Of a stretch of 62,000 nt of DNA, positions 9,097-54,290 are shown in pieces (the stretch's first letter is position 1; each line of letters opens with the position of its first letter). Source of the stretch: Chiloscyllium plagiosum. Its lineage: Eukaryota. The stretch lies in assembly GCF_004010195.1 (NCBI RefSeq), contig NC_057759.1, forward strand, positions 5,547,725-5,609,724, given 5' to 3'. A program made the translations under genes and the position numbers. The notes below the pieces were generated by a model. That model saw only the letters and a list, made by a program, of their open reading frames with translations, had not been told where the DNA came from and did not search any database.

Positions 9097-9178
9097 GGAA
9101 ATCGAGCTGAGGGCATGAGTGAGGACAGACCTGCAAGAAATTTCGAATATGCAGAGATCGGGTCAAGTCTATTGAATG
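9097..9178 (+). pseudogene. Receptor cytoplasmic-tail exon A, copy 1 (acceptor deleted)
   Basis: Reads GNRAEGMSEDRPARNFEYAEIGSSLLN then GTGACT; the paralog at 17488-17580 has full splice sites. Confidence 0.55.
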
Positions 9179-9339
9179 GTGACTGTGAATCTGTGAGCTG
9201 CTGATCCTACATCATCACATATTGGTCAGCGTTCATGCTGGTATTCATCTGATTGGGAAGATCAACAAAAACAAACCTCTGGAAGCGTTGGAAGGAAGTT
9301 TGGGTTGTTTCCTCAACAACAGAGAAGTTTGGTGGTGGA

Positions 9340-10090
9340 GGGGTCACGATAGAGGTCTGTAAGATCGGTAGTATTGTACAGCAGAGAGACCTAAGGGTTC
9401 AGGTACATAATTATTTGGGGTTCGTGTCACAAGTAGACAACGTGTTTCAGAAAGTGTTTAGAACACTTGCCTTCATTGCTCAGCCCATTGAGTGTTGGAG
9501 TTCGGACACCATGTTGTGGTTGTACAGGACACTGGTGAAGCCTGTTCTGGTGTATTGTGTCAAGTTCTGGTTGCCCTGTTAAGGGAAGGAAATTATTAAG
9601 CTGGAGAGGGTTCAGAAAAGATATATCAGTATGTCATTAGGAATGGAGTGACTGAGTTATAAAGAGAGGCTGGATGTGTTGGGACTATTTTAACCAGACC
9701 ATAGAAGTTTGAGGGGTATGGAGGTTTATGAAATCATGATGGGCATAGATGAGGTGAATGGCAGGTATCTTTTCCCAAAGGTGGGGGACTTCAAGATCAG
9801 TGGACATTTTTTCAGGTGAGAGGAAAACCATTTTTAAAAACGAAATGATGGGCAACTTTTTTTTATGGCTAGTGGTTCAAATGGGGATTTAACTTCCAGA
9901 TGAAGTGGCGGATACAAGGACAGTTACCATGTTTAAAAGACATTTAGAGAAGTACAAGAATAGGAAAGGTTTGGAAAGATATGGGCCAAGTGCAAACAAG
10001 TGGGACTAGTTTAGGTTGAGATTATGGACGGCTTGGACTAGTTGGACTGAAGGGTCTGTTTACTTGCTGTATGACTCTACGATGCTATAA
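9340..10090 (+). mobile_element. CR1 LINE 3' fragment (HER1-like tail)
   Basis: LYRTLVKPVLVYCVKFWLP motif; tail GGACTGAAGGGTCTGTT...CTGTATGACTCTA is shared in form with the HE1 SINE tails. Confidence 0.85.
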
Positions 10091-10359
10091 TGAGGGACAT
10101 TAGCAGGGGGACAGGAAGCAGCTGTTCCCCTTAGTCAAAGGGTCAGTAACAAGGAGGGACGTCATTTTAAAGTGAATGGAAAGAGGATTTGAGAGCGATT
10201 TGAGGATTGTTTCACCCACAGAATGGTGGGGATCCTAAATGTGTGAAAATAAAATATTTGGACTTTCAGTTTCTATTTGAAATCACTAATTGCTCCGGTG
10301 TGTGGAAATGCCACTTGGTAACTGCAGGGGATTCCATGATTTATTAATGTGGAATATTC

Positions 10360-10980
10360 ATATAAAGGAGCTGGAGGAAGCCATTCAGCCCCTTGATCCT
10401 GTTCCACCATTCAATGGCAGATCTGTGACCTGACTCCATAGACCTGCCTGTGGACTCTATCCCCTTTAATAACTTTGCTGAACAACAAAAAAAAAATTCT
10501 CTCTCAGATTTAAAACCAACTGATGCAGTAATGCCTGCTGTTTGTGGAAGAGAGTTCCAAACCTCTCCCAGCCTTTGTGCGTAGCAATACTTCCTAACAT
10601 CTCTCCTGAACAGTCTGGCCCTAATTCTCCAGCCAGGCCCTCCCTAGTTAAAGGATCCCCAACCAGTGGAAACGCTTTCAATTTCTATACCCTGTCTTCT
10701 CCTGTTAATATCTTCGATCAGATCATCCCTAAACCCTGTAAATTCTGGACACAACAGGCTTAATTTGTGTAATCTCACCTCATAACTTAACCCCTGAAGC
10801 CCAGGTATCAATCTTGTAAACTCACGCTGTACTCCCAGGCCAATCTATCCTTCCTCAGGTGTGGTGCCCAGATCTGCTCCAAGTGGGGTCTAACCAGGGT
10901 TTTGTATAACTGCAGCATCCCTTCTGCATCCCTGTACTCCAGTCCTCTCGATATAAAGGCCAGCATTCCATTAGCTTTCT
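10360..10980 (-). mobile_element. CR1 LINE 3' fragment
   Basis: Reverse-complement CR1 3' UTR and LYKTLVRPHLE-like coding; paralog at ~18060-18680. Confidence 0.8.
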
Positions 10981-11117
10981 TCAGGCAATTAATGTCAGAG
11001 ATGAAAAGAAATGCAGAAATTGTTGGAGAAACTCAGCAGGGACAGATATTATTTGTCACCTGGGGACTGTCTGACTACGTTGAAAACAACTTTCCATCTT
11101 TTCTTTTGACCCTTTAG

Positions 11118-11159
11118 TTTTGAGCTGTGCTGGAGCCATGTACTCTTCAGTGAAGAACA
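11118..11159 (+). pseudogene. Receptor tail exon B, copy 1 (runs into assembly gap)
   Basis: Polypyrimidine tract cttttcttttgaccctttAG, then phase-1 LSCAGAMYSSVKN; the paralog at ~18815-18860 reads AGAV*CSIKNTG with no AG. Confidence 0.5.
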
Positions 11160-11459
11160 NNNNNNNNNNNNNNNNNNNNNNNNNNNNNNNNNNNNNNNNN
11201 NNNNNNNNNNNNNNNNNNGGGGGGGGGGGGGGGTACTTTGAGAATTATTACTAAACGGCAGAAAATCAAAGGCTTTCCGTATATCTGAGGGAGGCTGTGT
11301 GCGATGGGTGTGAAGGAACTTGGAATTCGTAGGGTACACCCTGGGATCCATCTGAGGAAGATAGAACAATATTGATTCTTCATGATTTTATTCCTTTATT
11401 CCTTACAGGGATATGTATGGTCAGAGTCTTCCCTGATTGAGCCATTCCAAGTATCTCAG

Positions 11460-11975
11460 TCTCAAGTCAGGAGTGTGATGGAATGCTCCCTACTTGCCTG
11501 GATGGTTGCAGCTCCAACAATATTCGAAAAGCTCAACATCGAGGGAAAAAGCAGTCCCCACTTAATTGGAACCACAACCACAAGCATCTACTCCCTCTAC
11601 TACCTATGCTCAGTAGCAGCAATACTAAGATGTACTGCAAAAATACAGCAAAGATCCTCAGGCAACATCATCAAAACCCATGACCACTTCCATCTAGAAG
11701 GACAAGTGCAGCAGATATTTGGGAACACACCCTCCACAAGTTCCCCTTTGGGCCACTCAGTGTCCTGACTTGGATATATGTCACTGTTCCTCTGGTGTCA
11801 TTGGGTCAAAATCCTGGAATTCCCTCCCTCAAGGCAGTGCGTGTCTACCTACAGTGCATGGACTGCAGCAGTTCAAGAAAGCACCTTCTCAAGTAGGGAA
11901 CTAAGGATGAGTTGGGCAATAAACACAGGGTTCAGTGGGTGTTGCCCATTGTCATGAGTGATTAATAATAAAAAA
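11460..11975 (+). mobile_element. LINE 3' end (CR1/L2-related family)
   Basis: QVRSVMECSLLAWM motif and A-rich tail after GGGCAATAAA; further copies at ~14280-14700 and ~19140-19685. Confidence 0.75.
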
Positions 11976-12276
11976 AGGTTGTAAATTACCCCGGGGCCTT
12001 CACCTTCCATATGTGAGCTTGTTCTGGGAGGGTAGGCACAGACTTTGTAGTGAATGTTGATGCAAAATATACATTCAATGTTATTGAGTCACCTGGTTCG
12101 TGAACTGCTTTGAAAATGTTGCTATATGGCCAAGAGATTAGGTTTATATTACTGTTGGGTTGGAGCTGTGACCTTAATTATAAGTCCATATTTAACTTTG
12201 AGGCATCATTTGCTGTTTTTTTAACATTCTGATCTCTAATCTTTTGGTCACTTTGCTTATTGTTTTTTGATTATAG

Positions 12277-12342
12277 ATGACTCCGAAACAGATAGCCCTT
12301 TGGTGTACTCAGTTTTCACCATCTCAAAACCAAGAAAGGCTG
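12277..12342 (+). pseudogene. Receptor tail exon C, copy 1 (66 nt, phase 1-1)
   Basis: ttttttgattatAG / GTAAAG; reads DSETDSPLVYSVFTISKPRKA. Confidence 0.65.
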
Positions 12343-13184
12343 GTAAAGAATATAATAGATATACACTTTATAACATTTCTGGTTCAGTGAAAGTGGAGAT
12401 TTTCTTTGGTTTATCTTAACCCTCAAAAACCTAGCCACTTTCAAACATCGCTAGTGTTNNNNNNNNNNNNNNNNNNNNNNNNNNNNNNNNNNNNNNNNNN
12501 NNNNNNNNNNNNNNNNNNNNNNNNNNNNNNNNNNNNNNNNNNNNNNNNNNNNNNNNNNNNNNNNNNNNNNNNNNNNNNNNNNNNNNNNNNNNNNNNNNNN
12601 NNNNNNNNNNNNNNNNNNNNNNNNNNNNNNNNNNNNNNNNNNNNNNNNNNNNNNNNNNNNNNNNNNNNNNNNNNNNNNNNNNNNNNNNNNNNNNNNNNNN
12701 NNNNNNNNNNNNNNNNNNNNNNNNNNNNNNNNNNNNNNNNNNNNNNNNNNNNNNNNNNNNNNNNNNNNNNNNNNNNNNNNNNNNNNNNNNNNNNNNNNNN
12801 NNNNNNNNNNNNNNNNNNNNNNNNNNNNNNNNNNNNNNNNNNNNNNNNNNNNNNNNNNNNNNNNNNNNNNNNNNNNNNNNNNNNNNNNNNNNNNNNNNNN
12901 NNNNNNNNNNNNNNNNNNNNNNNNNNNNNNNNNNNNNNNNNNNNNNNNNNNNNNNNNNCCTTGTTGCGATCAACAATATTTAATGTGACCAGGAATTTCA
13001 TCAACTTCACAGAGCCAGGTAATTCATTCTTCATCTTTGATCTGTGCTCGCTCTTCACTGGGGTCCAGCTGAAGTCTTGACAGGAACACTCTTAAAAACT
13101 TACTTCAGAAACTCAGCAGCTCAGCAGCATCTGTGGGGGGAAGGGAGAGAAAGAGTAATATCCTTTCTCAGATAAGGGAGGCCT

Positions 13185-13800
13185 TCATAGCAAGAAGATT
13201 CAAATCCAAGTGCAGGGATGTCTCGCTACAATTGGACAGGGTGAGACCACACCCTGGAGAACTGTGTACGCAGTTTGGGGTTTCCTTATTTGAGGAAGGA
13301 TATTGTGCCTATGGAGGGGGTGCAGAGAAGGTTTCCCAGAATGATTCCTGGGATGGTGGGACTGACAGATGGAGAGAGACTGGAATTATTAGGGTGACAC
13401 TCACTGGAGTTTAGAAGAATTAAGAGGGACTCTGATAGAAACCTATAAATTTGAACAAGGACGAAACAGAGTAAATGCGGGGAGGGTGTTCCCGGTGACC
13501 AGGCGGAGAGTCCAGAACCAGGGGGTCACAGTCAAAACGAAATGGAGTGGGACTGAGATGGGGAGAAATGTCTTTACCCAGAGAGTGGGAAGCCTGTGGA
13601 AGTCTGTGTCACAGAAAGCAGTCAGGGCCAGAATACTGAATGTTGTTCAGGAAGGAGTTGGATTGAGTTCTTAGAGGGTAAAGGGAGGGTGCGGGGAGAC
13701 AGGGGACTGTGTTGGGTGATTGGCCATGATCCCTTTGAATGGAGCAGGCTAGAGGGGCCGATAGGCCTCCCCCTGATGATATTTTCGATGTTTCTCTGTG
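13185..13800 (+). mobile_element. CR1 LINE 3' fragment
   Basis: VRPH..ELCTQF and RNVFTQRVGSLW motifs; CR1 3' UTR. Confidence 0.8.
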
Positions 13801-14279
13801 AATCGCCCAGTTGCCGCTGACAGGTGCCTCGATATATGCAGGCCGTGAAAATGAGGGACAGTAATTTCTAGTCGACAATTTAGAGAGAGTTGGTGCAGAG
13901 CGATCTTTTGAGTTTAACATCGAATAGTTTGGGTTGGATTGGTGGGATATTGTTAATGAGACAGGCTGCACAGTAACAATTATTTAATGCAATGGTGAGG
14001 TTTTGGAGGGAATTTTACAGACACGAGTGTTGGCAGAGGGTCAGGGCAACTGGGAACAGGAAACACTGGGGATGGTGTTTATATGAGGGTGTGCGTATGA
14101 GAGAGTATGTGTGTAGTGCGTTTGAGTGAGTATGAAAGTGTAAATGTCCGTGTGAGAGAGAGAGAGAGAGAGAGAGAGGCACACACACATTCTCATTGAC
14201 ACTTATATACTTTCACGTGCGCAAACACACACTCACTCAGTCACTTCTGCAGTGCACCTTGTAGACCACACCTGAGAAG

Positions 14280-14700
14280 CCGAGCACCATCCAGGAACAC
14301 AACATCCATTCCCTCTACCACCTGCACTCAGTCGCAGCTACGAGATGACCTTCAGAAATTCACCAAAGATCCTCAGGCAGCACCTTCCAAACCCACAACC
14401 ACGTCCATCTAGAAGGACAAGCACAGCAGATACATGAGAATACCACCTCCTGCAACTTTCCCTCTGAGCCACTCACCATCCCAACTTGGAAATATATCAC
14501 CATTCGTTTAGTGTTGCTGGGTCAAAATCCTGTAGTTCCTTCTCTAATGGTATCGTGGATCTACCTACAGCACAGGGATTGCAGTGGTTCAAGAAGACAG
14601 CTCATTACCTCCTTCTCAAGGGGCCAACTAGGGATGGATAATAAATTCTCGGCCCAGCCAGTGATTTTCGCAACCCACCAGTGAATTAAAAAAGAAATAA
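14280..14700 (+). mobile_element. LINE 3' end, same family as 11460-11975
   Basis: CCATCTAGAAGGACAAG...AACTAGGGATGGATAATAAA and an A-rich tail. Confidence 0.75.
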
Positions 14701-16427
14701 AGCACTATTTGGGAACGTTCTTTATGAGGATGTGGGCAGGCTGAACAAGTGGCAGACAAAATTACTTGGGGAGACATACAAAGAAATGTACTGTGTTCAG
14801 AGGAATGGTCAGCACAGATATAAACTAAAGGTTAAAATTGGAATAACTGTTGCTTGCGCATCAAAGAATCCAGATTCATTTACTAGCAGGAGAAGCTGAA
14901 TATTTACACTAAAACTTTCCTATGTTCTTCCTCTCTTATTTTCTCCCGCTGTTTCTTCCGGCATGTTCCCGGTCGAACAGAAGTAAGTGAGGTGGTTAGC
15001 AACTTCGAACAACATTCAAGCGCTGTCCAAATGGTCTGAAAATCACTCTAGGGTGCAAACCCAGCAATTTTACATCAGTTAGACAAATTGGAGCAAATGA
15101 ACCGTTGTGTCTGATTCGTTTGCAAATCTAAAGCACAACAGTTCAAATTGAGGACACACTCTCAATTTCCGTTAGACTGTGAACTGAGTGTTGGTCAGTC
15201 CCATTAGTGGTGAGGTTATCCATTTCAGTTGGAAGAATTGAAAAAGGCAACTTATCATCTGAATGGGACAGAAAGTTCAAAATGTCAGTGTAAAGGCTAT
15301 AGCAGGTCACAAGGAAGACATTTATTGCGAAAGAAATGGAATATGGAAGTAGGTAATTGTTACTGCAACTGTACAAGGGATTTGGGTTTCCACATCCAGA
15401 GTACTGCAGACAGTTTTGGTCCCTTTACTTGAGGAGAGATGTCGTTGAATTGGAGGGAGTTCAAAGAAACTCACTGAATTGATTGCCCAGATGAAAGTTT
15501 AGTCTTATGAGAAGAGACTGGTACAATTTTGATCTCTTTACTTGAGAACAGATGCAGTTTATACTGGAGGTAGTTCAGAGGAGATTCACTCAATCATTTC
15601 CAGAGATGAAGGGTTTGTCTTAGATGAGAGATTAAGCAGTATTTCTGGAGTTTGGAAGAGAGGAGATCTAACTGAAGGTTATAAAATGCTAAAGGGGGTA
15701 TTGACAAAGGAGTTGGAGAGAGGATGTTTGCTCACATGGGAGAATCTAGAATAAAAGGTTATCATTTCATGATAAGGGGCTGGGCAGACTGAAAACAGAG
15801 GTAAGGAGCAATGAATTCTCTCAAATGAGGAGGGGGTTGTACAATTGTGGGAACATCACCCCCCCGCCCAACCCCCCCACCACTGCATAAAGTGGAAGAG
15901 GAGACAGACAGATTGTTAATCAATGATGGGTCAAAGGGTGTGTTTGCAGGAAAGTGAAGTTGAGGCTGAGATGGGATCAGCTGCGATCGTATGGAATAGC
16001 AGAGCAGGTTCCTGAGGGGCCAGGTGGACTCGACCTGATGCCAGCCTGGATGTTCTTGTGGAGTTATATTGTTAGTTAATAGCAAAACTGCTAGGAGGGA
16101 GAAAATGAAGTTTGATTTAACAAAATAGGTTTTAATTCGTGAACATTCGAAAATAAAGACAAACATAATTCAACACAAATTTGGTGAAGGGCGTTGGTTG
16201 AAAGAAATGGAAAGACAATATATTTAGGTGGGTAAAAAAACTAGAGCTGGTTTGGAGCAGAGGGAGCTGGGGGTATATGTCCACAGATCAGTGAAGGCAG
16301 CATAACAGGGAGAGAGCAATTAATAAAATACACAGCATTCTTCGTTTTATTAATAAGGGCATAGAGTCCGAGAACAAGGAGCTGATATTGAAGTTATAAA
16401 AGACACTGGTGGACCTCAGCTGGAGTG

Positions 16428-16620
16428 TCAGAGAGAGAGAGAGGGAGAGGGTGATAACTGGTAGGTGGTAGTTTAACCTGAGGGTTACCATGCCTCCACA
16501 AGGGGAGAGATGGAGAAGGACAGTCCTTCATGGTAACCTCAACCAGTGAGAGATTCAAACCCACGCGGTCAATGTTACTCCATATTTCAAACCAGCCATC
16601 CAGCCAACTGAGCTAACCCA
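16428..16620 (-). mobile_element. tRNA-derived SINE (third family)
   Basis: Minus strand GGTTAGCTCAGTTGG A-box...GGTTTGAATCT B-box, body ACCCTCAGGTTAAAC; related copies at ~8148-8260 and ~28095-28320. Confidence 0.65.
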
Positions 16621-17487
16621 ACACAAAGCAGAGGGCAGAAAAGAAATTAGTTCCGGTAACAGCACAAGTATTGAATGGAGAATATTAGATCATGTTGGAG
16701 ATGTACCTTTGATCTGTTGGATATTTCTTTGTGTGTAACACCTTACCTTCACAGGCAACAGAAGCTGAATTTAGAAATACATTTGACAAAGGGAGTTGGC
16801 CTTTTATTACCCAGGCTGGTTTTGTTCTGTTCTGGACACCTTACTAAAGGAAGGATGTTCAAACCCTGGACACAATGTGAGGGAGATTTACGAGAATAAT
16901 ACCAATGATGAGGGATTTTAGATGCAGGGAAAAGTTCAGGAGACTGAGCTTATTCTCCTTCAAGCAGAGAAGATGAAGTGGTGACCTTATTGAGGTGTTG
17001 AAAGTTTGAACAATTTTGACGGGAAAGCAAGTTATTGTTTCCCACTCATTGGTCTATTAGTAACTGGCTGGTAGAATTTCAAGATTGTCAGTGAAAGAGT
17101 GAGATGAGGAGAAACTTATTTGGATTGCTGGGATTTGAATGTGCTGCTTTAGGGAGTGGTGGAGGTTTGAAAAAAGAGCTGAATATAAATTTGAAAGGGA
17201 TGATGTAAGAGGGCTACAGAGATAGGGCTGGAGAGTGGGACTACCTGGGTAGCTCATTCAGGAGCTGGTACAGACACAAATGGCCTCCTTCCGTACAGTA
17301 AAAGTATATGATTCTATGAACGTAGAAGTTCTCAGCCACATTCTGGATAATTCCAGGAGGTCATTCCGTGGGACCTTGGCTCAGTGACCTTGTTGCCAGG
17401 AGTTTTTGTACACGCACAGCAGCAAATTGTTGTCACGATCCGGATTGGAACTCGGTTGGGTAATGATCTGGAAATATTTCATTCCAG

Positions 17488-17580
17488 GGGAGGCGATGGG
17501 AAATCGAGCTGAGGGCCCGAGTGAGGACAGACCTGCAAGAAATTTCGACCACGCAGAGATCGGGTCAAGTCGATTGAACG
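17488..17580 (+). pseudogene. Receptor tail exon A, copy 2 (93 nt, phase 1-1)
   Basis: tttcattccAG / GTGAGT; reads EAMGNRAEGPSEDRPARNFDHAEIGSSRLN (Tyr of copy 1 is His here). Confidence 0.65.
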
Positions 17581-19971
17581 GTGAGTATGAATCTGAGAGC
17601 TGCTGATCCTACACCGTCATGTATTGGTCAGCGTTCATGCTGGTATTCGTCTGATTGGAAAGATCCACAAAAACAAATCTCTTCCTGGAAGTGTTGGGGA
17701 GGGAAGTTTGGGTTGTTGGGTGAGAAGGTTGATGGGTGAGGGGTACTTGTTAGCAGAGTGTAAGATTGGTAGTGTTGTAAAGCAGAGAGCCCGAGGGTTT
17801 CAGGTGCATAAATCTTTGAAGGTTGTGTCACATGTAGACAGGGTGTTTGAGAAGGTGTTTAAAACATTTGCCTTCATAGTTTTTAAACTCAAGGGTAAGA
17901 GGTTTAGAGATGGATTTGAGGATTGTTTCACCCAGAGGATGGTGGGGATCTGGAATGTGTGAAAATAAAATATTTGGACTTTCAGTTTCTATTTGAAAGC
18001 ACTAATTGCTCCAGTGTTGGAAATACCACTTGGCAACAGGATATATTGATGTGGAATATTCATATAAAGGAGCAGGAGGAGACCATTCAACCCATTCAGC
18101 ATGTTCCACCATTCAATGGCTGATGTGTAACCTGACTCCATCGACCTGCCTTTGATCCTATCCCCTTTAATAACTTTGCTGAACAAAAACATTATCTCTC
18201 AAGATTTAAAACTAACTGATCCAGCAATGCTGCTGTTTGTGGAAGAGAGTTCCAAACCTCTCCCAGTCTTTGTGCTTAGTAGTACTTCCGAACCTTTCTC
18301 CTTAACAGTCTGGCCCTAATTCTCTGGCTATGCCTTCCCTATTTCTAGCATCTCCGACCAGTGGAAACACTTCCAATTTCCGTACCCTGTCTTTTCCTGT
18401 TAATATCTTTGATCAGATCATCCATGAACCCTGTAAATTCTGGACAGTACAGGCTTAATTTGTGTAATCTCTCCTCATAACTTAACTCCTGAAGCCCAGG
18501 TAACATTCTTGTAAAGTCTCGCTGTGCTCCCTCCCAGGCCAATCTATCCTTCCTCAGGTGTGGTGCCCAGATCTGCTCCAAGTGGGGTCGAACCAGGGTT
18601 TTGTATAACTACAGCATCCCTTCTGCATCCTTTACACCAGATCTCTCAATATAAAGGCCAGCATTCAATTAGCTTTCTTCAGGCAATGAATGATAGAAAT
18701 AAAAGAAAATACAGAAATTGTTGGAGAAACTCAGCAGGGACAGATATTATTTGCCACCTGGGGACTGACTGTTTACTGCAAGACAACTTTTCAACTTTCC
18801 TTTTGATCCTTTATTTTTGCTGGAGCCGTGTAATGTTCAATAAAGAACACAGGCACCCCAATGGCAACTATTCATTTTGTTTACAAACCTCGAGATTCTC
18901 GAACAAGGGGGTGTACTCTGAGAATTAATATTAAATGGCGGAAAATCAAAGGCTTTCCGTATATCTGAGGGAGGCTGTGTGCGATGGGTATAACTCAATT
19001 TGGAATTTGTAGGGTAGATCCTGGGGTCCATCTGAGGAAGACAGAACAATATTGATTCGTCATGATTTCATTCATTTATTCCTTCGAGGGATATACATGG
19101 TTAGAATCTTCCCTGATTGAGCCATTCCAACTACCTCAGTCTCAAGTCAGGAGTGTGATGGAATGCTCCTCCTTGCCTGAATGGTTGCAGCTCCAACAGC
19201 ACTCGAGAAGCTTGACATCATCGCGGGACAAAGCAGCCCCGCTTGATTGGAAGTACATCCACAAGCATCCACTCCTTCTACTACCCATGCTCAGTAGCAG
19301 CAGTGTGTACCATCTACAAGATGTACTGCAGAAATACACCAAAGATCCTCAGGCAGCACCTTCAAAACTCACAACCACTTTCACCTAGAAGGACAAGTAC
19401 AGCAGATACATGGGAACACCCACCCTCTATAAGTTCCCCTTCCGGCCACTCAGTGTCTTGACATGGAAATATAACACTGTTTCTTCAGTGTCATTGTGTC
19501 AAAATCCTGGAATTTCCTCCTTGAGGGCAATGTGTGCCTATCTACGGAACATAGACAGCAGCAGTTCAAGAAAGCAGCTCGTGCCTACCTTCTCAAGGGG
19601 ACAACTAGGGATGAGTTGGGCAATAAGTGCTGGGTCCAGCGGGTGATGTCCATGTGCCATGAACAAATAATATAACAAAAAAAATTGTAAATGAGCCCAG
19701 GGCCTCTACCTTCCGATGTGAGCCTGTTCTGGGAGGGTAGGCACAAACTTTGTAGTGAACGTTGATGCAAAATACACATTCGATGTTATTGAGTCACCTG
19801 GTTTGTGAACTGTTTTGAAAAGGTCGATATATCGCCAAGAGCTTTGGTTTATATTCCTGCTAGGTTGGGACTGTGACCTTAATTATCAGTTTGAGGCATT
19901 GTTTGCTGTTGGTTTTACATTCTGATCTCTAACCTTTCGGTTCATTTTGCATTATTGTTTCTTGATTATAG

Positions 19972-20037
19972 ATGACTCCAAAACAGATAGCAGTTTGGTG
20001 TACTCAGTTTTCACCATCTCAAAAATGAGAAACATTG
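19972..20037 (+). pseudogene. Receptor tail exon C, copy 2 (66 nt, phase 1-1)
   Basis: tttcttgattatAG / GTAAAA; reads DSKTDSSLVYSVFTISKMRNI. Confidence 0.65.
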
Positions 20038-20154
20038 GTAAAAGATACAGTGTATATATATACTTTCCTAACATTTTTGGTTCAGTGAAAGTGGAGATTT
20101 TCTCTAGTTTATCTTAACCCTCTAAAACCTAGCCATTTTTAAACATAGCTAGTG

Positions 20155-21895
20155 AGAAAGGCCAATTTTGACGGTATTAGGCAAGAACTTTCAAAAGGTG
20201 ACTGGGCGCTGATGTTCGCAGGTAAAGGGATGGCTGGAAAATGGAAAGCCTTCAGAAATGAGATAACGAGAGTCCAGAGAAAGTATACTCCTTTGTTAGG
20301 GTGAAAGGAAAGGCTGGTAGGTGCAGCTGGATGACTAAAGAAATTAAGATTTCGCTTAAGAAAAAGAAGGAAACATATGTCAGGTATAGACAGGATAGAT
20401 CGAGTGAATCCTTCGGGGAGTATAAAGGCGGTAGGAATATACTTAAGAGCGAAATCAGGAGGGCAAAAAGGGGACATGAGATAGCTTTGGCAAATAGCGT
20501 TAAGGAGAATCCAAAGGGTTTTTACAAATACATTAAGGTCAAAAGGGTAACTCGGGAGAGAATAGGGCCCCTCAAAGATCAGCAAGGTGGCCTTTGTGTG
20601 GAGTCGCAGGAGATGGGGGAGATACTAAACGAGGATTTTGCATCAGTATTTACAATGGAAAAGGACATGGTAGGTATTGAATGTAGGGAAACAGATCGTG
20701 ACATCTTGAAAAATGTCCATATTACAGAGGAGGAAGTGCTGGATGTCTTGAAACGCATAAAAGTGGATAAATCCCCAGGACCTGATCAGGTGTACCCGAG
20801 AACTCTGTGGGAAGCTAGAGAAGTGATTGCTGGGCCTCTTGCTGAAATATTTGATCATTGATAGTCACAGATAAGGTGCCGGAAGACTGGAGGTTGGCGA
20901 AGGTGGTGCCATTTTAAGAAAGGACAAACGAGATAATAATAGACCAGAGAGCCTGACAGCGATGGTGGGCAAGTTGTTGGAGGGAATCCTGAGGGACAGG
21001 TTGTATATGTATTTGGAAAGGCAAGGACTGATTAGGGATAGTCAACATGGTTTTGTGCATGGGAAATCATGTCTCACAAACTTGATTGAGTTTTTTGAAG
21101 AAGTGACAAAGAGGATTGATGAGGGCAGAGCAGTAGATGTGATCTATATGGACTTCAGTTAAGCATTCAACAAGGTTCCCCATGGGAGACTGGTTAGCAA
21201 TGGAATGCAGGGAGAACTAGCCATTTGGATACACACCGGGCTCAAAGGTGGAAAACATAGGGTGGTGGTGGAGGGTTGTTTTTCAGACTGGAGGCCGGTG
21301 ACTACTGGAGTGCCACAAGGATCGGTGCTAGGTCCACGGTTTTTCATCATTTATACAAAGGAAATGAAGGTGGACAGTGAAGAAGGTTACCTTTGATTAC
21401 AATGGGATCTTAATCAGATGGACCAATGGGCTGAGAAAGAAAAATGTGAGGTGTTGCATTTGGGAAACAAATCTTAGCAGGACTTGTATACTTAATGGTA
21501 AGGTCCTAGGGAGTGTTGCTGAACAAAGAGACCTTGGAGTGCAGGTTCATAGTTCCTTGAAAGTGCAGTCGCAGGTAGATAGGATAGTGAAGAAGGCGTT
21601 TGGTATGCTTTCCTTTATTGGTCAGAGTATTGAGTACAGGAGTTGGGATGTCATGTTGCGGTTGTACAGGCCACTTTTGGAATATTGCGTACAATTCTGA
21701 TCTCTTTCCTATTGGAAAGATGTTGTAAACTTGAAAGGGTTCAGAAAAGATTTTTCAAGGATGCTGCCATGGTTGGAGGATTTGAGCTATAGGGAGAGGT
21801 TGATTGGGTTGGGCTGTTTTCTCTGGAGCATCGGAGGCTTAGGGGTGATCTTAGAGGTTTATAAAATCATGAAGGGCATGGATAGGATAAATAGA
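20155..21895 (+). mobile_element. CR1 LINE ORF2 fragment, 5'-truncated
   Basis: KSPGPDQVYPR, QHGFVHGKSCLTNL, DVIYMDFS and GVPQGSVLGP across frameshifted ORFs; near-identical subfamily to 61770-62000. Confidence 0.95.
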
Positions 21896-22024
21896 CCAGT
21901 ACAAGAGCTTAGTGTCTGAGAGTGGCCCCTTCTGGCCTTCGTCTTTGGGACAATGAGCCATTCGCTCTGGATCGAATATCATTCACAAGAAGAGCATTGC
22001 TATTTCATTGCCCTGAGTGTTTCT

Positions 22025-22875
22025 TTGATGACACAAAGATAGGTGGAAGGACAGGCAGTGTTGAGGAAGTGTGGAGTGGGCAATGAAATGGTAGATGGAA
22101 TACAATGTGGGAAAGTGGGAAGTTACGTACTTTAGTAGGAAGAACAGAGACAGAGACTGTTTTCTAAATGGGGAAAGGTTTCGGAAATCTGAAGCACAAA
22201 GGGACTTGGGAGTCCGGGTTCAGGATTCTCTTCAGGTTAACAGGCAGGTTCAGTTGGCAGTTAGGAAGGCAAATGTAATGTCAGCATTCATTTTGGGAGG
22301 TGTAGAATACAAGAACAGGGCTGTACTGCTAAGGCTGTATAAGGATCTGGTCAGACCACATTTGGAACATTGAGAGCAGTTTTGGGCCCCCTATCTAAAG
22401 AAGGATGTGCTGAACTTGGAAGGAGTCCAGAGGGGGTTTGCAAGAAAGATCCCAGGGATGAAGAACTTATCATATGAGGAGAGGTTGAGGTCTCTGAGTC
22501 TGGACTCGATGGAGTTTAGAAGGGTGAGGGAGAACCTAGTTGAAACTTGGAGAATACTGAGAGGCCCGGACAGAGTGGACATGGAGAAGATGTTTCCATG
22601 AGTCGGAGAGACTAAGACCCGAAGGCACAGCCTCAGAATGAAGGGAACTCCCTTTAGAACGGAAATGAGGAGGAATTTCTTCAGCCAGACAGTGGAACTC
22701 ATTACTGCAGACAGCTGTCATTATGTCTTTAAGACAGAGATAGATAGGTTCTTGATCAGTAGGAGGATCAACCGTTACAGAGAGAAGGCAGGAGAATGGT
22801 GTTAACAAACATATCAGCCATGACAGAATGGCAGGGCAGACTTGATGGGCCAAATGGCTGCTCTATCTTATGGTC
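22025..22875 (+). mobile_element. CR1 LINE 3' fragment
   Basis: DDTKIGG, MEYNVGK and LYKDLVRPHLE motifs, with 3' UTR. Confidence 0.9.
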
Positions 22876-22999
22876 TTGGCTACTTAGTGACTATTGGCCT
22901 GTGACGCATCACACAGTTTAGGCCCTCAGATTCAGAGCTTTCTGAGCGTGTGCTATGAGGCACCCACACTAAAAAGTGTGCAGGCAGCTGGACGACCAA

Positions 23000-24740
23000 T
23001 AGAACATACGGGCTAGGAGCCCTCGGGAGCCAGGTTCCCTCGTTCTTTATGGCTGTGACTGATCTCATCCCAGCCTCAACTCCAATTTCCTGCTCCCACT
23101 CCCTTTAACCTCTCACTGATTGACAATGTCTGTCCATCCCTTCCTTCAATTTATTCAGTGTCCCGATGTGGCGCCCCCTCCATATACACATACACACTGA
23201 CAAGAATTCCCAGATATTCCCACCCCCTCTCCCTTAGAGAGAAACCATTTTTCAACATCTCACTTTTCAGTCTGTCCCACCCCCTTCTCATGAAACGATG
23301 ACTCTATCATCTTCCATTGTCACACATGAGGAAACAACCTCTTTCTGTCTCCTATGTCAATCCCACCCCCTTTACCACCCTATGTCCCTCAGTTGGAACT
23401 CCCCTCATTCCTGTAAACTCCAGAGCATATTGGCCTTAACTGCTCAATCTCTCTTTTGAAGACAAACCCCTCCTCTCTGAACATGAAATGTACAAAATCA
23501 CGTTAGATGGTATCGCGGATGTAGAATCTCAAATCTCAAAGTGAGTTAGCCATAGTTTCCGAGAGGTCTGCAGCCCAGAAAAAAGGCCAATCGAGTCTGT
23601 GCTGGTCAGAAACAACCACTTCACTATTCTCTAATCCCTTTTCCTCAGTACTTGGCCCCATAGCCTTGGCGTCACGAGTGCACATCCAAATCCACCTGAT
23701 GACGGTTTTTGCCTCTCCCACCCTTACAAGCAATGACTTCCAGATTCCCCACCACCCTCTGTGTGAACAAGATTTTCCTCACATCCCCTCGAAATGGCCC
23801 TTACCTTCAATCTATACCCCTCTCCCACCTCCATCAAGGGGGGGGAAGTTTCTTCCTGCCTCCCCTATCTTCACCCCTCATCATTTTAATCATCCCTCTC
23901 TTTCAATCCACTCTGCTGTAAAGACAACAACCCCAGTCTGTCCAACCTCTCATCATTGAAAAAACTCTCCTGCCCCCAAGGCAATATGCTGGTAAATGTC
24001 CCTGTNNNNNNNNNNNNNNNNNNNNNNNNNNNNNNNNNNNNNNNNNNNNNNNNNNNNNNNNNNNNNNNNNNNNNNNNNNNNNNNNNNNNNNNNNNNNNNN
24101 NNNNNNNNNNNNNNNNNNNNNNNNNNNNNNNNNNNNNNNNNNNNNNNNNNNNNNNNNNNNNNNNNNNNNNNNNNNNNNNNNNNNNNNNNNNNNNNNNNNN
24201 NNNNNNNNNNNNNNNNNNNNNNNNNNNNNNNNNNNNNNNNNNNNNNNNNNNNNNNNNNNNNNNNNNNNNNNNNNNNNNNNNNNNNNNNNNNNNNNNNNNN
24301 NNNNNNNNNNNNNNNNNNNNNNNNNNNNNNNNNNNNNNNNNNNNNNNNNNNNNNNNNNNNNNNNNNNNNNNNNNNNNNNNNNNNNNNNNNNNNNNNNNNN
24401 NNNNNNNNNNNNNNNNNNNNNNNNNNNNNNNNNNNNNNTGCCTCTCCCACCCTTACAAACAATGACTTCCAGATTCCCCACCACCCTCTGTGTGAACAAG
24501 ATTTTCCTCACATCCCCTCGAAATGGCCCTTACCTTCAATCTATACCCCTCTCCCACCTCCATCAAGGGGGGGGGGGAAGTTTCTTCCTGCCTCCCCTAT
24601 CTTCACCCCTCATCATTTTATACATCCCTCTCTTTCAATCCACTCTGCTGTAAAGACAACAACCCCAGTCTGTCCAACCTCTCTCAATCATTGAAACTCT
24701 CCTGCCCCCAAGGCAATATGCTGGGAAATGTCCCTGTGCA
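23000..24740 (-). mobile_element. Decayed CR1 3' fragments spanning an assembly gap
   Basis: Reverse-complement CR1 tails and RKILFTQRVVG motif; 23710-24005 is repeated at 24439-24737 across the gap. Confidence 0.7.
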
Positions 24741-24799
24741 TCCCCTCACAATTCATTTAGATTCCACGAGATAGTGAGATGAGGAACAGTCAGCAAATA

Positions 24800-27700
24800 C
24801 AGCTTAACACATGGCTTTGAGGCTGGTGCAGGAGGGAGGGCTTCAGGTACCTAGACCATTGGGATACCTTCTGGGGAGAAGGTGGGACCTGTATATGAAG
24901 GACGGGTTGCACCTGAACTGGAGGGGCAGAAATGTCCTGGGTGGGAGATTTGCTCATGTGATTCAGCAGGGTTTAAACTAGTTTGGCAGGGGGTGGGAAT
25001 CAGAGCCACATGTCTGAGAGGGGGTCAGTTGCAGACGGGACAGTGACAGGATATATTGAATCTATCGGGAAGATTTCTTACGCGATGAAATAAAGGGATC
25101 GGTTAAAGTGTGTCTTCTTTAATGCAATGAGTATCTGAAATAAGAGTGATGAACTTGGAGCATGGATCAGTACTTGGGGACTATGATGTTGTGGCCATAA
25201 CGGGGATGTCAGTTTCAAAGGGGCAGGAATGGTTGCTTGATGTTCCAGGGTTTAGAACATTTAAAAAGACCAGGGAGAGTGGAAAAAGAGGAGGGGGTGC
25301 AGCATTGCTAATCAGAGTGTGCATCACAGCTACAGAAAGAAAGGTTGTTGAGGAAGGTTTGTCTACTGAGTCTGCATGGGTGGAAGTTAGGAATAGCAAG
25401 AGAACAGCCACCGCATTGGGGACTTTCTACAGACCACCTAATAGCAGTAGAGAGATTGAAGATCTCAGAGGTGGGCAGATTCTGGAAAAATGCAAAAGTA
25501 GCAGCGTTGTTGTTATGGGTGATTTCAACTTTCCCAATATCGACTGGAACTTCCTAAGTCCAGATGGTTTGGGTGGAGCCGTTTTTGTCAGGTGTGTTCA
25601 GGAGGGTTTCCTTACTCGGTATGTAGACAGACCAACGAGGGGAGGCGCCATTTTGGATTTGGTGCTCGGCAATGAGCCAGGACAGGTGTCAGACCTCTTG
25701 TTGGGACAGCACTTTGGTGAAAGTGATCACAACTGCCTCACATTTAGCATAGCCTTGGAGAGTGAAAGGAGTAGTTACCGAGGGAAGATATTTAACTTGG
25801 GGAAAAGGAAATTATGACGCTATCAGACAGGAGTTGGGAAGTACAGACTGGGAGCAATTGTTCCACAGAAAGGGCACAGCAGACATATGGATACTATTTA
25901 AAGAGCAGTTGTTGCAAGTGATGCACAAATTTGTTCCTCTGAGACTGGTAAGAAGGGGTAAGATTAAGGAACCTTGGATGATGAGAACAGAGGAACGTCT
26001 TGTCAAAAGGAAGAAGACAGCTTAAGTGAGGTGAAGGAAGCAAGGATCTAGCACACCTTTAGAGGATTATAGGCTTGCTAGAAAGGAGCTCAGAAATGGA
26101 CTGAGGAGAGCCAGGAGGGAACAGGAAAAAGGCTTGGCAAGAAGGATTAGGGAGAACCCAAAGGCATTTTACTCACACGTGATGAATAAGAGAATGATCA
26201 GGGAGAAGGTAGGGCCGATCAGGAATAGCGGGGGGAACTTGTGCGTGGCGCCTGGGCAGATAGGGGAAGACCTAAATGAGTTTTTTGCTTTGGTTTTCAC
26301 CAAGGAAAGGGAACTTGTTGTAAATGAAAACTTAGAGGAGCGGGGATACAGTCTTGACCCAATTAAGATTGATGAAGTTGATATGCTAGAAACTTTGGAA
26401 AACATTAAGATTGATAAGTCCCAGGGCCAGACCAGATTTACCCTAGGCTGCTCCGGGAAGCGAGAAAGGAGGGTGCTAAGCTGCTGGCGAGGATATTTGC
26501 CTCCTCACTCTCCATGGGAGTCGTACTGGAGGATTGGAAGGAGACGACTGTTGTTCCTCTTTTCAAGAAGGGCAATAGGGAAATCGCTGGCAATTACAGA
26601 GCAGTCAGTCTTATGTCTGTGGTCAGCAAAGTTGTGGAAAGAATTCTGAGGGATAGGATGTATAACTATTTGGCAAAGCATAGTGTGATTAAAGACAGTC
26701 AGTATGGCTTTGTGAGGGGCAGGTCATGCCTCACAAATCTTACTGAGTTCTTTGAGGAGATGTCAAGACAAGTCGACGACGGTCGAGCAGTGGATGTGGT
26801 GTATGTGGACTTTAGCAAGGCATTTGATAAGGGTTCCCCATGATAGGCTCATTCATAAAGTCAGGAAGTTTGGGAACAGAGAGATTTGGCTATCTGGATT
26901 CAGAATTGGCTGGCTGACAGAAGGCAGAGAGTGGTTGTAGATGGAAAGTATTCTGCCTGGAGTTCAGGGGTGAGTGGAGTCCCTCAGGGCTCTATTCTTG
27001 GGCCTCTGCTCTTTGTAGTTTTTGTAAATGACTTGGATGAGGAGGTTGAGGGGTTGGTTAGTAAATTTGCAGATGACACAAAGGTTGGAGGTGTCGTCGA
27101 TAGTATAGAGGGCTACTGTAGGCTGCAGCGTGACATAGACAGGAATGCAGAGCTGGGCTGAGAAATGGCAGATGGAGTTCAACTGGATAAATGCAAAGTG
27201 ATGCATTTTGGAAGATCAAACTTGAATGCTGAATATAGGATTAAAGACAGGATTTTGGCAGTGTGGAGAAACAGAGGGATCTGGGTGTGCAAGTGCATAG
27301 ACCCCTCAAAGTTGTCACCCAATGGATAGGGTTGTCAAGAAAGCATATGGTGTTTTGGCTTTCATTAACAGAGGGATCGAGTTTAAGAGACGCAAGGTTT
27401 TGCTGCAGCTCCACAAGTCCCTAGTGAGACCACACTTGAAATATTGTGTCCAGTTCTGGTCACACTACTATCAGAAAGATGCAGAGACTTTGGAGAGGGG
27501 GCAAAGAAGGTTTACCAGGATGTTGCCTGGACTGGACCACTTGCCATATGAAGAAGGGTTGAATAAGCTTGGACTTTTCTCTCTGGAGAGAAGGAGGGAG
27601 AGGGGAGACCTGATTGAGGTGCACAAAATAATGTGAGGAATAGATAGAGTCAATAGCCAGAGACTTTTCTCGCAGGATTGACTGGAATGAGAAGTCATAG

Positions 27701-27950
27701 TTTGAAGATATTAGGAGGAAGGTATAAAGGAGATGTCAGAGGTAGGGTCTTTACGCAGAGTTGTGAATGCATGGAATGCGTCGCCAGCTGTGGTGGTGGA
27801 AGCAGAGTCATTAGGGACATTTAATTAACTACTGGACATGCACATGGATAGCAGTGAGTTAAGGGGTGCATAGGTTCAGTTACTATATTTTACATTAGGT
27901 TTAAATCTCGGCAAACATCGTGTTCTGTGCTATACTTTTCTCTGTTCTAT
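24800..27950 (+). mobile_element. CR1 LINE: ORF1 end plus nearly complete, disrupted ORF2 (APE + RT)
   Basis: DGLHLNWRG (ORF1 esterase end), YRPPNSS, MGDFNFPNIDW, SDHN, GVPQGSILGP, FADDTK, RPHLKYCVQFW; TTCTAT-like tail. Confidence 0.95.
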
Positions 27951-27988
27951 ACATACCATTGGTAAAATGTCTTTTCTTTCACTTACAG

Positions 27989-28020
27989 GTCACTCTAATG
28001 ATGCAGCAGGAAGGAAACAC
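27989..28020 (+). pseudogene. Receptor tail exon D (32 nt, phase 1-0)
   Basis: Strong acceptor cttttctttcacttacAG; reads HSNDAAGRKH; followed by GCAAGT (GC donor or mutated GTAAGT). Confidence 0.45.
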
Positions 28021-28345
28021 GCAAGTTATTTTGCAGTGAAAAAGAGGGCAGTTAATTTTTAATCAGCAAAGTTATGTTTTTAGCAGGCGGTTAATGTAAA
28101 GTCACCATTGTCTCATTAGGGAGAGGGAGAAAGAGGTGTGGGGGAGAAAAAGAGAGAAAAAGCAACAACTGTTTTATGGTTTAACCTGAGGGTCACCACA
28201 TCTAAAACACAGAGAATGATCACACACGGCAATCTCAACCAGAGCAGCAATTGAACTGCATGCTGTCACCGTGACTATACATTGTAAGCCTACTATAGAA
28301 TCAACTGAGCTAACCAACCCCTGCATGGCCAGTGGCAGAAACATT

Positions 28346-28826
28346 GGGTGGCACAGTGGCTCAGTGGTTAGCATTGCTGCCTCACAGCGCCAGGAACCCA
28401 GGAATAATTCCAGCCTCGGGTGACTGTCTATTGGGAGTTTGCATATTCTCTCCTTCTCTGCGTGGGTTTTCTCCGGGTGCTCCAGTTTCCCCCACAGTCC
28501 AAAGATGTGGAGTTTAGATGGATTGGTTATACTAAGTTGCCCATAGTGTGAGAGTTATGCAGGCTGGGAGGATTAGCCATGGGAAATGCAGGGTTACAGG
28601 GATTAGAGAGGGTGTTGGGCTGGGGTTGGATGCTATCAGGGGATCAGTATGTGGACCCGATGGACTGAAAGGTCTGCTTCCACGCTGTAGGATTCTATGA
28701 TGTGCAGGTTCGGGGGATTGGCCATGGGTAATGCAGGGTTATAGGGGTAGGGTCGGGGTCTGGATGGGATCCTCTTCACTGGCTTGGGACAGACTGAATG
28801 GTCTCTTTCCACACTATATGGATTCT
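28346..28826 (+). mobile_element. HE1-type V-SINE with duplicated 3' part
   Basis: GGGTGGCACAGTGGCTCAGTGG head and V-domain; the tail ends at ~28700 and repeats (TGTGCAGG...GGATTCT) to ~28826. Confidence 0.88.
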
Positions 28827-29673
28827 GGGGACATCAATGTTTAGCTCAATGGTGTGGGGCAATTTATTCTGATCTCAATTTTGATGAGATTCACTTTCAG
28901 TTTCTGAAATAATGGGGAAGCAAAATCCTATGTTTTCAGCTCCCCAGGGTATGTCCCGCAGATGTGAATGTGAATCTTGCTGTGGCAGGTCGCGGATTTG
29001 GAATTCGATTTTAAATAAAACAGATCTGGAGTTAAGACTCTAATGATGACTGTTGTCAGGAACAAACAACCATCTGGTTCAAAATTGAAGACTGAGGTGA
29101 GGAGGAGTTTCTTCTCTGAGGGTTGAGAGTCGTTAGAACTCCTTGCCACAGAGAGCTGTATGTGGGGTCAGCGACCATGTTTAAGGCTGGGGTAGGTAGT
29201 TTCCTGATCAGTCGGGGAATTGAGGGTTACATGTTAAGTGCAGGAAAGTGAGCGTGAGGAATGGGGCATCAGCCACTATGTGATTGAATAGCTGAACAGG
29301 CTTGAAGGGCCGAATGGTCTTCTCCTGTTCCTGACTGTGATGGTCCTTAAGGGAATGAAACCTGCCCTCCTTACCGTCTCTGCTCTGCACTTGATTCCTA
29401 ACACTTTGCAAACTCTTCACTGCCTTCTGGCTGAATAAGTCGATTGGTTGAAGGACATTTCAGAATCGCATCCACTTCCCACCTTGACAGAGATGACCAC
29501 ATCCTGTTTAGAGTACAGAGAAATAACATTTGTCAGGGTCAGTTTTAGGCTTGTTCCAGTCATGTGCTTTGCCAAGAGAAATTGGTCTGTATAATGACCC
29601 CAGACATTCACAGCTCCTCCTGTATATTCTGATTGTCTTTCAGGCAAAGTTTGTTATTCTCATCCGTTTTCAG

Positions 29674-30572
29674 AGTCATACAGTACGCAAACAGGCCCTT
29701 CAGCCCAACTCGCCCATGCCAACCAGGTTTCCCAAACTCAACCGGTCCTATTTGTCTGCATTTGGCCCATATCTCTCTCAACTTTTCTTATCCATGTACC
29801 TTTCCAAATGTCTTTGAAATGTTGTAATTGTACCACTTCCTCTGGCTGCTCATTCCATATACTCACTGCCTTCTGTATGACAAATTTGTCTCTCAGGTCC
29901 TGTTTTAATCTTTCCCTTCTCACCTTAATCCTATGCTCACTAGTTTTGGACACCCCGACCCTGGGTAAAAGACCATTCCCATTTACCTTTTCTGTGCCCC
30001 TCGTGATTTTATAACCTCTGTAAGGTCACCCCTCAGCCTCCAGCGCTTCAGGGGAGAAAAGCTTCCAGCTTATGAAGCTTCCCCTTATAACATAAACCCT
30101 GCAATTGTGATGACATCTTTGTAACCTTTCTAGCTTAACAACATCCTTTCCACAGCAGGTTGACCAGAACTGTACACAGTATTCTAAAAGTGGCCTCACC
30201 AATATCCTGTACAGCTGTAACATGATGCCCCAACTCCTGTCATCAATGCTCTGACCAGTGAAGGGAAGCATGCCAAATGCCACCTTCACCACAGTGTCTT
30301 GCTACAATGCCACATTTAAGGAACTGTCTTCCTGCACCCCTAGGTCTGTTTGTTCGGAAACACTCCCCAGACTTGTACTATTAACAGTATAGGTCCTGCC
30401 CTGGTTTGCCTTACCAAAATGCAACATCTCACATTTATCTAAATTAAACTTCATCTGCCATTCCCTAACCCACTGGCCCAGTTGATCAAACTTCCATTGT
30501 CCTCTTAGATAACCTTCTCCTCTGTCCAAAATGCCACCAATTTTGGTCCTGCTCCTACTACGTTTCTTGTTG
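29674..30572 (-). mobile_element. CR1 LINE 3' fragment with 12-bp TSD
   Basis: LYRILVRPLLEYCVQFWS and FNLDKCEMLHFG motifs; ATCCGTTTTCAG at 29662-29673 and 30573-30584. Confidence 0.92.
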
Positions 30573-30584
30573 ATCCGTTTTCAG

Positions 30585-30784
30585 GCTGACCAAGCGGAAC
30601 AGCAACCACCCTGCATTACATAAGTCACCCTGAGGCACACAGATACAGGTGAGGATGAGGAACCAGGTCAAGACTAAGAGGGGAAAGTGAGGTCTGCAGA
30701 TGCTGGAGATCAAAGTTGAAACTTTATTGCTGGAATCAAGACTAAGAGGGAAACGTTCATGTTAGCCTTCCATGGACATTGTGA
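30585..30784 (+). pseudogene. Receptor tail terminal exon with disabled ITIM
   Basis: After ttttcAG, phase 0, and removing a 53-bp insertion plus one TSD copy: ADQAEQQPPCIT*VTLRHTDTGEDEEPGQD*EGNVHVSLPWTL*. TAA at 30621 sits at the Tyr position of IxYxxL. Confidence 0.6.
30683..30735. mobile_element. 53-bp Penelope-related short insertion with 15-bp TSD
   Basis: GAAAGTGAGGTCTGCAGATGCTGGAGATC family sequence flanked by TCAAGACTAAGAGGG at 30668-30682 and 30736-30750. Confidence 0.85.
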
Positions 30785-31199
30785 AACAGTGCAGAAGAAA
30801 GCCTGTGAAGCTTCACAAATCGATCAACAGCAAATCTATCTTCCAGCAAATAAGGAGGACAAGGAAGAGAAGGCATAGCACTGTCACGTTTCTGCGACTC
30901 GGCTAAGCTTTGTCTCAATTCACTCAGCAAGGTATCAGTTCGAAAGATGGACTTGTTTTGAGAAGCCATCTGAAATATAGTCTCTCCCAGAACTCTCGGT
31001 GGGTCAATTTATACCGCTGTAGCATGATCTATCTGTTGATGGCAGAGATTTGAGATTTTATGGTGTCCTCTCCTAACTTGAGCATCCAATTGATTTCGTG
31101 GGGAATGGGTCGAGGCAGACGAGACAATGAATTGAATGTACTCTGCGCATCATTTATTTAAACTGTGGTGAACTGGAAATAATTCAAGACAGGATCATT

Positions 31200-54070: not shown

Positions 54071-54109
54071 GTTCACAAACACTTTGACAGAGAATGGTGC
54101 ACTCTGCCC

Positions 54110-54290
54110 ACATTGCGGCCTCTTATACCTTCCGGAGGAATGGTGGGCGACCATTTCTGATTGGTCAGCTCCCAATCAGAAATCTGCCTCTTTCCCCCAA
54201 TCGGGTGAGGGCCCGGGGAGGAGGGCGGAATCGACAGGCGCCAAATCATCAACCGCCTTCTTTCCAATCTGAAAAGCCCGCCAATTTCCA
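54110..54290 (-). promoter_or_regulatory. H2A promoter
   Basis: TATAAGA on minus at ~54127-54121; CCAAT/ATTGG motifs at ~54160, 54172, 54197, 54264 and 54281. Confidence 0.75.

Follow-up and report, generated by a model that had tools for sequence, protein, structure and literature searches.

The ectodomains of FcR and FCRL proteins consist of FcR-type immunoglobulin (Ig) subtypes D1-D5, and the inhibitory-type frog members (XFL) join an uncharged membrane helix to a multi-exon tail with YxxL/I/V motifs, according to the passages describing these receptors (PMC2413239). Published accounts place cartilaginous fish outside this family: Akula et al. reported in 2014 no FcRL homologs in the sharks screened (PMC4016189), a 2017 review describes cartilaginous fish as being without FcRL genes (PMC5742104), and a 2026 review says the same and asks how these animals manage without Fc receptors (PMC13337447). 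Here we analyzed a 62,000-nucleotide stretch of the genome of the carpet shark Chiloscyllium plagiosum (RefSeq assembly GCF_004010195.1, contig NC_057759.1, positions 5,547,725 to 5,609,724, forward strand), hereafter the window, in which a chain of short exons for a tyrosine-motif receptor tail lies between positions 9097 and 30784. On sequence grounds, this region very probably represents the remains of two paralogous carpet-shark FCRL-type gene copies, neither of them able to make a receptor.

Self-BLAST of the window aligns 8145-12456 (copy A) with 16506-20154 (in copy B) in three pieces of 83%-86% identity, introns included. The two copies are about 87% identical overall and flank an assembly gap of 500 N; round gaps of this size are scaffold joins of unknown length. 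Copy B reads, in order, Ig exon end, E1b, E2b, E3b, E4, and E5, where tail exons are numbered from E1 to E5 and a or b denotes the copy. Since no receptor tail can have an Ig exon in its midst, the chain combines two partial copies of one gene type and is not one gene, and its tyrosine motifs are repeated because of the segmental duplication. The features are as follows.

8145-12456, plus strand: copy A block, tail exons E1-E3 with their introns, ending at the 500-N gap (self-BLAST, alignments, profile scan).
9098-9178, plus strand: E1a, remnant of a 93-nt exon with motif FEYAEI at 9142-9159 and donor GTGACT; 21/26 identical to C. plagiosum XP_043539740.
11118-11159, plus strand: E2a, start of a 57-nt exon with motif AMYSSV at 11135-11152; best match of the E2 profile, 10/13 identical to XP_043539740.
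12277-12342, plus strand: E3a, 66-nt phase 1-1 exon with motif LVYSVF (profile scan, peptide comparison).
12459-12958, no strand: 500-N assembly gap between copies A and B, its true size not given by the assembly (self-BLAST).
12959-13018, plus strand: 3' end of the membrane-proximal Ig exon of copy B, with phase-1 donor GTAATT at 13019 (donor-anchored test, tblastn).
17488-17580, plus strand: E1b, complete 93-nt phase 1-1 exon with AG/GTGAGT signals and motif FDHAEI (His codon 17550-17552); 24/30 identical to XP_043539740.
18815-18863, plus strand: E2b, dead copy of the 57-nt exon with TAA at 18831 (alignment of the copies).
19972-20037, plus strand: E3b, 66-nt phase 1-1 exon with motif LVYSVF (profile scan, peptide comparison).
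27989-28020, plus strand: E4, 32-nt phase 1-0 exon without Tyr and with a GC donor (GCAAGT); full-length best match of the E4 profile.
30585-30784, plus strand: E5, phase-0 terminal coding exon with native TGA at 30782-30784; 23/33 identical to XP_043539740 (profile scan, tblastn).
30683-30736, plus strand: insertion of a 54-bp repeat fragment into E5, flanked by 14-bp target-site duplicates at 30669-30682 and 30737-30750 (self-comparison).

Both strands of the window were scanned with a profile for each tail exon, allowing for frameshifts. Every tail exon ranks first, or among the first two, for its own profile, and these sites lie in order on one strand. The scores are far apart from the next site for E1 (114 and 100 vs. 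30), E3 (71 and 69 vs. 31), and E5 (118 vs. 34); the separation is weaker for E2, with 48 and 34 against 33, and for E4 (30 vs. 26). In a donor-anchored test of 11,590 GT/GC sites, the Ig exon end scored 43.2 against 19.5 for the next best, with the donor at the expected residue. The E3 motif LVYSVF corresponds to LVYSVI, LVYSVV, or LLYSVV in relatives, 5-6 of 10 residues of the E4 peptide are identical to carpet-shark relatives, and the intron downstream of E2b matches the read-through tail of Stegostoma XP_059498487. The end and donor of E2a fall in a 59-N gap. By these comparisons, the homology of the tail exons to shark receptors is far beyond chance. Motif matching alone does not exceed chance, as the strict immunoreceptor tyrosine-based inhibitory motif (ITIM) pattern, [ILVS]xYxx[LV], has 146 matches in the six frames and fits none of the listed motifs of the window. 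Pfam gave no family for the four tail-exon queries, and a word-indexed protein search with both 66-nt exons returned nothing at E ≤ 10 among 37 candidates because the query is too short.

The remaining exons of such a gene were sought with tblastn and the profile scan. Upstream of copy A, the window yielded no Ig, membrane, or linker exon, the frameshift-tolerant scan found no membrane exon of copy B in the window, and exons for Ig1-4 and the membrane helix have no site above background anywhere in it. Downstream of E5, neither AATAAA nor ATTAAA occurs before 32711, so the 3' end is not defined. At 14949-14988 (plus strand), in the expected place of the linker exon, unique sequence holds a pyrimidine tract, a short segment, and a perfect GTAAGT donor; as a linker exon, the candidate at 14949-14982 is unsupported, ranking 1,084 of 11,594 sites in a peptide test with 9 whole codons. 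A tblastn match at 15127-15321 (E 0.25) lies inside LINE sequence and was treated as chance.

A preliminary description of the chain, made from the letters of the window, had placed all segments correctly with their lengths, phases, and splice signals, and the motifs it listed, the TAA codons at 18831 and 30621, and the His at 30758 are all present. The splice signals that it called proper are so for most segments, the exceptions being 9098-9178 (acceptor deleted) and 18815 (AT for AG). Its ITIM-like motifs exist, with none fitting the strict consensus and a pattern at chance level. It had seen no Ig or transmembrane exon in the window: the former statement gives way to the Ig exon end at 12959-13018, and the latter agrees with our scan. 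The unusually motif-rich tail that it proposed is an artefact of adding two copies together, as intact tails hold 4-5 tyrosine motifs.

Intact relatives are found in several elasmobranchs. A profile of E1a and E1b gave five matches at E ≤ 0.001 among 1,835,955,588 protein representatives. Two are unrelated repeat proteins, and the three that span all 30 positions come from sharks, namely XP_059498327 of Stegostoma tigrinum (E 6e-9), which bears the name 'Fc receptor-like protein 6', a fragment from Stegostoma, and a model from Hemiscyllium ocellatum. With the Stegostoma tail as query, seven proteins were obtained from 289 candidates, all from Stegostoma, C. plagiosum, C. punctatum, or Hemiscyllium, and a cluster look-up of the relatives gave 23 named sequences. 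The carpet-shark RefSeq models comprise Stegostoma tigrinum FCRL4/6-like XP_059498323 and XP_059498327, H. ocellatum XP_060712749 and XP_060710971, C. plagiosum PECAM-like XP_043539740, and C. punctatum FCRL2-like XP_072420101. An ectodomain search returned 19 proteins from 2,665 candidates (12 elasmobranch, 7 frog or turtle) and adds Scyliorhinus torazame, Scyliorhinus canicula, Pristis pectinata, and Mobula hypostoma, bringing the relatives to eight elasmobranch species.

In full-length relatives, five Ig domains of C2 type precede an uncharged membrane helix and a tyrosine-motif tail. The tail is encoded by a linker exon, by exons of 93, 57, 66, and 32 nt, of which the 57-nt one can be skipped, and by a terminal exon; the exon lengths and phases that these proteins imply are those in the window. 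The tail motifs are FDYAEI, VYSSV, L(V/L)YSV(I/V), I(T/I)YATL, and N(V/I)YAN(L/V), and strict ITIMs number 1-2 in each of five carpet-shark tails and 2-3 in catshark and rays. Isoform models of the relatives skip exactly the 57-nt E2 or the membrane exon. In the RefSeq isoform models P0019, P0022, P0031, and P0014, the membrane exon is skipped and the tyrosine tail kept, and a Xenopus clone with a similar loss of the membrane exon is described in one passage of PMC2413239. The relatives bear out the preliminary description on two points: the chain comes from the 3' side of a gene for an elasmobranch receptor of the Ig superfamily whose tail carries tyrosine motifs, and intact paralogs have Tyr at all four codons that had been flagged (the FDHAEI His, 18831, 30621, and 30758). 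The family, which had been thought impossible to name, is Fc receptor-like in these relatives.

The best PDB sequence matches of the C. plagiosum protein are human FCRL5 (E 2e-49), FCRL4, and FcgammaRI, with the FCRL5 alignment colinear over residues 33-465 (430 residues), and all seven matches at E ≤ 1e-8 in a profile search of the PDB are again FCRL5, FCRL4, and FcgammaRI. The intact relatives possess FcR-type Ig subtypes, of which the window itself shows no more than the final 60 nt of the proximal Ig exon, and they have the features of the inhibitory class, namely an uncharged membrane helix, a tail on separate exons, and YxxL/I/V motifs. A signal peptide encoded across two exons (the 30/21-bp rule) and shared synteny with the tetrapod FcR locus are further marks of the FcR/FCRL family. 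Several observations nevertheless count against a clean assignment to FCRL. RefSeq names vary between FCRL and PECAM-like, the latter being given to the C. plagiosum model and one H. ocellatum model. In the ESM Atlas, PECAM clusters (0.97) stand just behind FCRL clusters (0.98). Foldseek with the AlphaFold model of XP_043539740 (mean pLDDT 71.5, pTM 0.43) places PirB, titin, and contactins above FcgammaRI, which ranks 16th with the highest identity of the list (25%-26%), and does not single out FCRL. Moreover, our trees were built without a PECAM-1, CD22, LILR, or LITR outgroup.

The PECAM-like names and the PirB rows at the top of the Foldseek list would also suit a pseudogene whose family is an offshoot of PECAM-1 or of LRC-type receptors (LILR/PirB) and not true FCRL, as would the first carpet-shark domain, which joins no tetrapod type, and the lack of a D2-type domain in the carpet-shark subfamily. 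This origin is improbable. PECAM-1, CD22, Siglecs, and LILR are missing from the 27 PDB matches at E ≤ 1e-5, with PDB coverage of PECAM-1 unchecked, and the seven non-elasmobranch ectodomain matches are all from frog or turtle, five of them named FCRL and two being unnamed Ig proteins. In a quickly built tree, 63 domains cluster by FCRL type across sharks, rays, frog, and turtle, with support of 82 for the D1 type, 98 for the D2 type, and 89 for the membrane-proximal type; D3 and D4/5 are less resolved, and a few domains escaped the extractor, among them turtle D2 and the fifth domain of the carpet sharks. The tails likewise align motif by motif among carpet sharks, catsharks, rays, and turtle FCRL. 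Taken as sequence relationships, these results argue that the elasmobranch family is probably of true FCRL ancestry.

Neither copy in the window has a frame that stays open from the ectodomain past the membrane helix into the tail, and the frameshift, two stops, dead acceptors, and insertion agree with the pseudogene status proposed earlier. At the Ig exon end, a 17-nt deletion shifts the frame, which changes between VAIN and IFN, and leads to an immediate stop. E1a has lost its acceptor and first codons to a 52-nt deletion, and in E1b the motif Tyr is replaced by His (FDHAEI). E2b carries AT for AG at its acceptor, deletions of 7 nt and 1 nt, the TAA at 18831, and a GC donor. E5 has TAA at the Tyr codon 30621, a second TAA at 30675, His for Tyr at 30758, and the 54-bp insertion, a fragment with four similar pieces elsewhere in the window. 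The order of most of these lesions can be suggested at best. Both 14-bp duplicates carry the TAA (30675), so this stop is older than the insertion.

Between copies A and B, identity is alike in exons (161/182) and introns (2862/3285; Fisher p=0.73), and E1 and E3 show 13.3 replacement vs. 2.7 silent differences (pN/pS 1.4), which fits drift of both copies since their duplication. In a tail tree of 10 rows, the window copies pair (82/84, not starred) and are separate from two intact hemiscylliid lineages; both are inside the carpet-shark group without resolved branching. Some points tell against two dead copies. The neutrality test has a small base, namely 182 bases of exon and 16 differences in codon regions, and fast evolution is usual in any case for the tails of immune receptors. 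E1b, E3a, E3b, and E4 keep open frames and splice signals, and the gap hides, or cuts off, the 5' side of copy B and the 3' side of copy A.

It is decidedly improbable that one copy is still used, for example because copy B is transcribed as a pseudogene or gives a secreted ectodomain without the broken Ig exon, or because copy A belongs to a live gene that only mis-assembly has broken. Isoform models of the relatives without the last Ig domain or the membrane exon speak for such use, as do the Tyr residues kept in E2a and E3a and the unseen 5' exons of copy B. Against it, no exon for Ig1-4, membrane helix, or linker was found in the window, and the 9 kb upstream of copy A contain a zinc-finger remnant and LINEs; the exons drift like the introns, and an identity of 87% would make alleles of one locus unlikely. 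Among 24 rows listed for sequencing runs matching 30460-31200, 13 contain part of this stretch, five of them, from two studies, with 0.69-0.72 of its 71 words, and no RNA run is among the rows listed; they were counted neither for nor against any reading. The window copies themselves most likely do nothing, and the pseudogene is a case of ordinary birth-and-death. Finally, that a single gene with E1-E3 internally duplicated encodes one very motif-rich tail is extremely improbable and largely refuted, for although all exons lie on one strand in compatible phases and the lesions seem to complement each other (E1 is dead in copy A and open in copy B, E2 the reverse), an Ig exon end with its own donor stands between E3a and E1b directly after the 500-N gap, and none of the full-tailed carpet-shark proteins compared repeats E1 or E3.

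Two decayed FCRL-type copies suggest the following history. The product of the intact gene is a type I receptor whose five C2-type Ig domains are followed by an uncharged helix and a tail with 4-5 tyrosine motifs, and by analogy with tetrapod FCRL this may be a leukocyte receptor, probably of B cells. Its engagement, by the same analogy, would lead to phosphorylation of the tail tyrosines, recruitment of SH2-domain phosphatases, and damped activation; phosphatase recruitment is an established property of ITIM receptors. A segmental duplication gave rise to copies A and B. Many separate lesions cost copy B its function, copy A lost the E1 acceptor and its upstream exons, and LINEs filled the introns. 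Three things suggest an inhibitory role for the intact relatives: the 1-2 strict ITIMs in each carpet-shark tail, the lack of charge in the membrane helix, and the account of inhibitory-type frog FCRL (PMC2413239).

With regard to cell type, the supplementary rows listed for PMC11372145 give LOC122544513, a gene under the name 'PECAM-like isoform X5', as a marker of bamboo-shark B cells (47.7% vs. 3.2% of cells). Its equation with XP_043539743, also named 'isoform X5', is unconfirmed, and a second 'X5' gene marks erythrocytes in the same rows. Immunoglobulin binding has been demonstrated for some FcR/FCRL members only; given true FCRL ancestry, such binding by intact shark members is a tentative and somewhat doubtful proposal. 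The whole combination, a genuine elasmobranch FCRL clade dating from the first jawed vertebrates, its turnover by birth-and-death, and an intact B-cell inhibitory receptor that would bind IgM, IgW, or IgNAR, is rather unlikely to hold in all its parts.

The window otherwise contains LINEs, a zinc-finger remnant, and histone genes. The remnant is a C2H2 zinc-finger array decayed by stops and a frameshift at 2600-3110 (plus strand; Pfam zf-C2H2, E 6e-9), 6 kb upstream of copy A. An open reading frame at 3405-3767 (plus strand) has 120 stop-free codons in unique sequence and is leucine-rich by eye; an identity as leucine-rich repeat protein was rejected, with neither a Pfam family nor an Atlas match. 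Near-identical stretches of 300 bp at 23710-24005 and 24439-24737 flank a 433-N gap and are probably an unmerged contig overlap, and a unit of ~119 bp occurs in three tandem copies at 34140-34492. Frames at 50379-51571 (minus strand) resemble a reverse transcriptase remnant of Penelope type. Open histone H2A and H2B frames share one strand at 53684-54172 (minus) and 55110-55502 (minus), and the N-terminal part of H2B seems divergent.

The importance of the locus comes nearly entirely from the intact relatives and the published claim that they contradict, the pseudogene being ordinary in itself. Intact relatives in eight elasmobranch species stand against the reported absence of FCRL and provide named, testable candidates. 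If they are true FCRL, the origin of the family moves back to the jawed-vertebrate ancestor, against an origin with bony fish. The claim is softened, in that RefSeq already assigns FCRL names automatically and a 2024 single-cell paper mentions, in one sentence, fcrl3, fcrl5, and fcgr1a-like genes in bamboo-shark B cells (PMC11372145). The references of PMC6795676 include a paper of 1988 under the title 'Fc receptor for shark IgM'. The preliminary description called the family uncharacterised, which must be qualified by the automatic RefSeq models in several sharks and rays and otherwise stands, as no paper characterising shark FCRL genes was found among the papers listed in literature searches that leave subscription journals largely outside their coverage. 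The feature in the window is a pair of pseudogene fragments from an elasmobranch FCRL-type family that is annotated automatically and apparently uncharacterised.

Compared with known systems, PECAM-1, CD22/Siglec, and PirB/LILRB resemble the relatives in having a multi-Ig ectodomain and an ITIM tail, a likeness of generic fold. The N-terminal V-set domain of CD22/Siglec has no counterpart, as Pfam V-set appears only at residues 249-274 of relative P0005, with no passing stretch. Tetrapod FCRL, represented by FCRL5, has an ectodomain colinear with the carpet-shark relative, whose membrane helix and tail are as in inhibitory-type XFL; the last tail motif is YENV in turtle, YENL in catshark, and YANL in carpet sharks. 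The carpet-shark subfamily differs in its first domain, which joins no tetrapod type, and in the missing D2 type. Catshark and batoid FCRL-named models have the same four-motif tail layout and Ig domain types in common with carpet sharks, but differ in identity (~30%), in the 6-7 domains of their longer forms, and in having no E2 exon, and a D2-type domain is present in Scyliorhinus torazame and batoids. The carpet-shark models are closest. Unlike the window copies they are intact, and no model matches those copies exactly; E1, E3, E4, and the first part of E5 are 47%-81% identical per exon to five carpet-shark proteins, the tail exons agree in kind, length, phase, and motif position, and the intron read-through sequences match as well.

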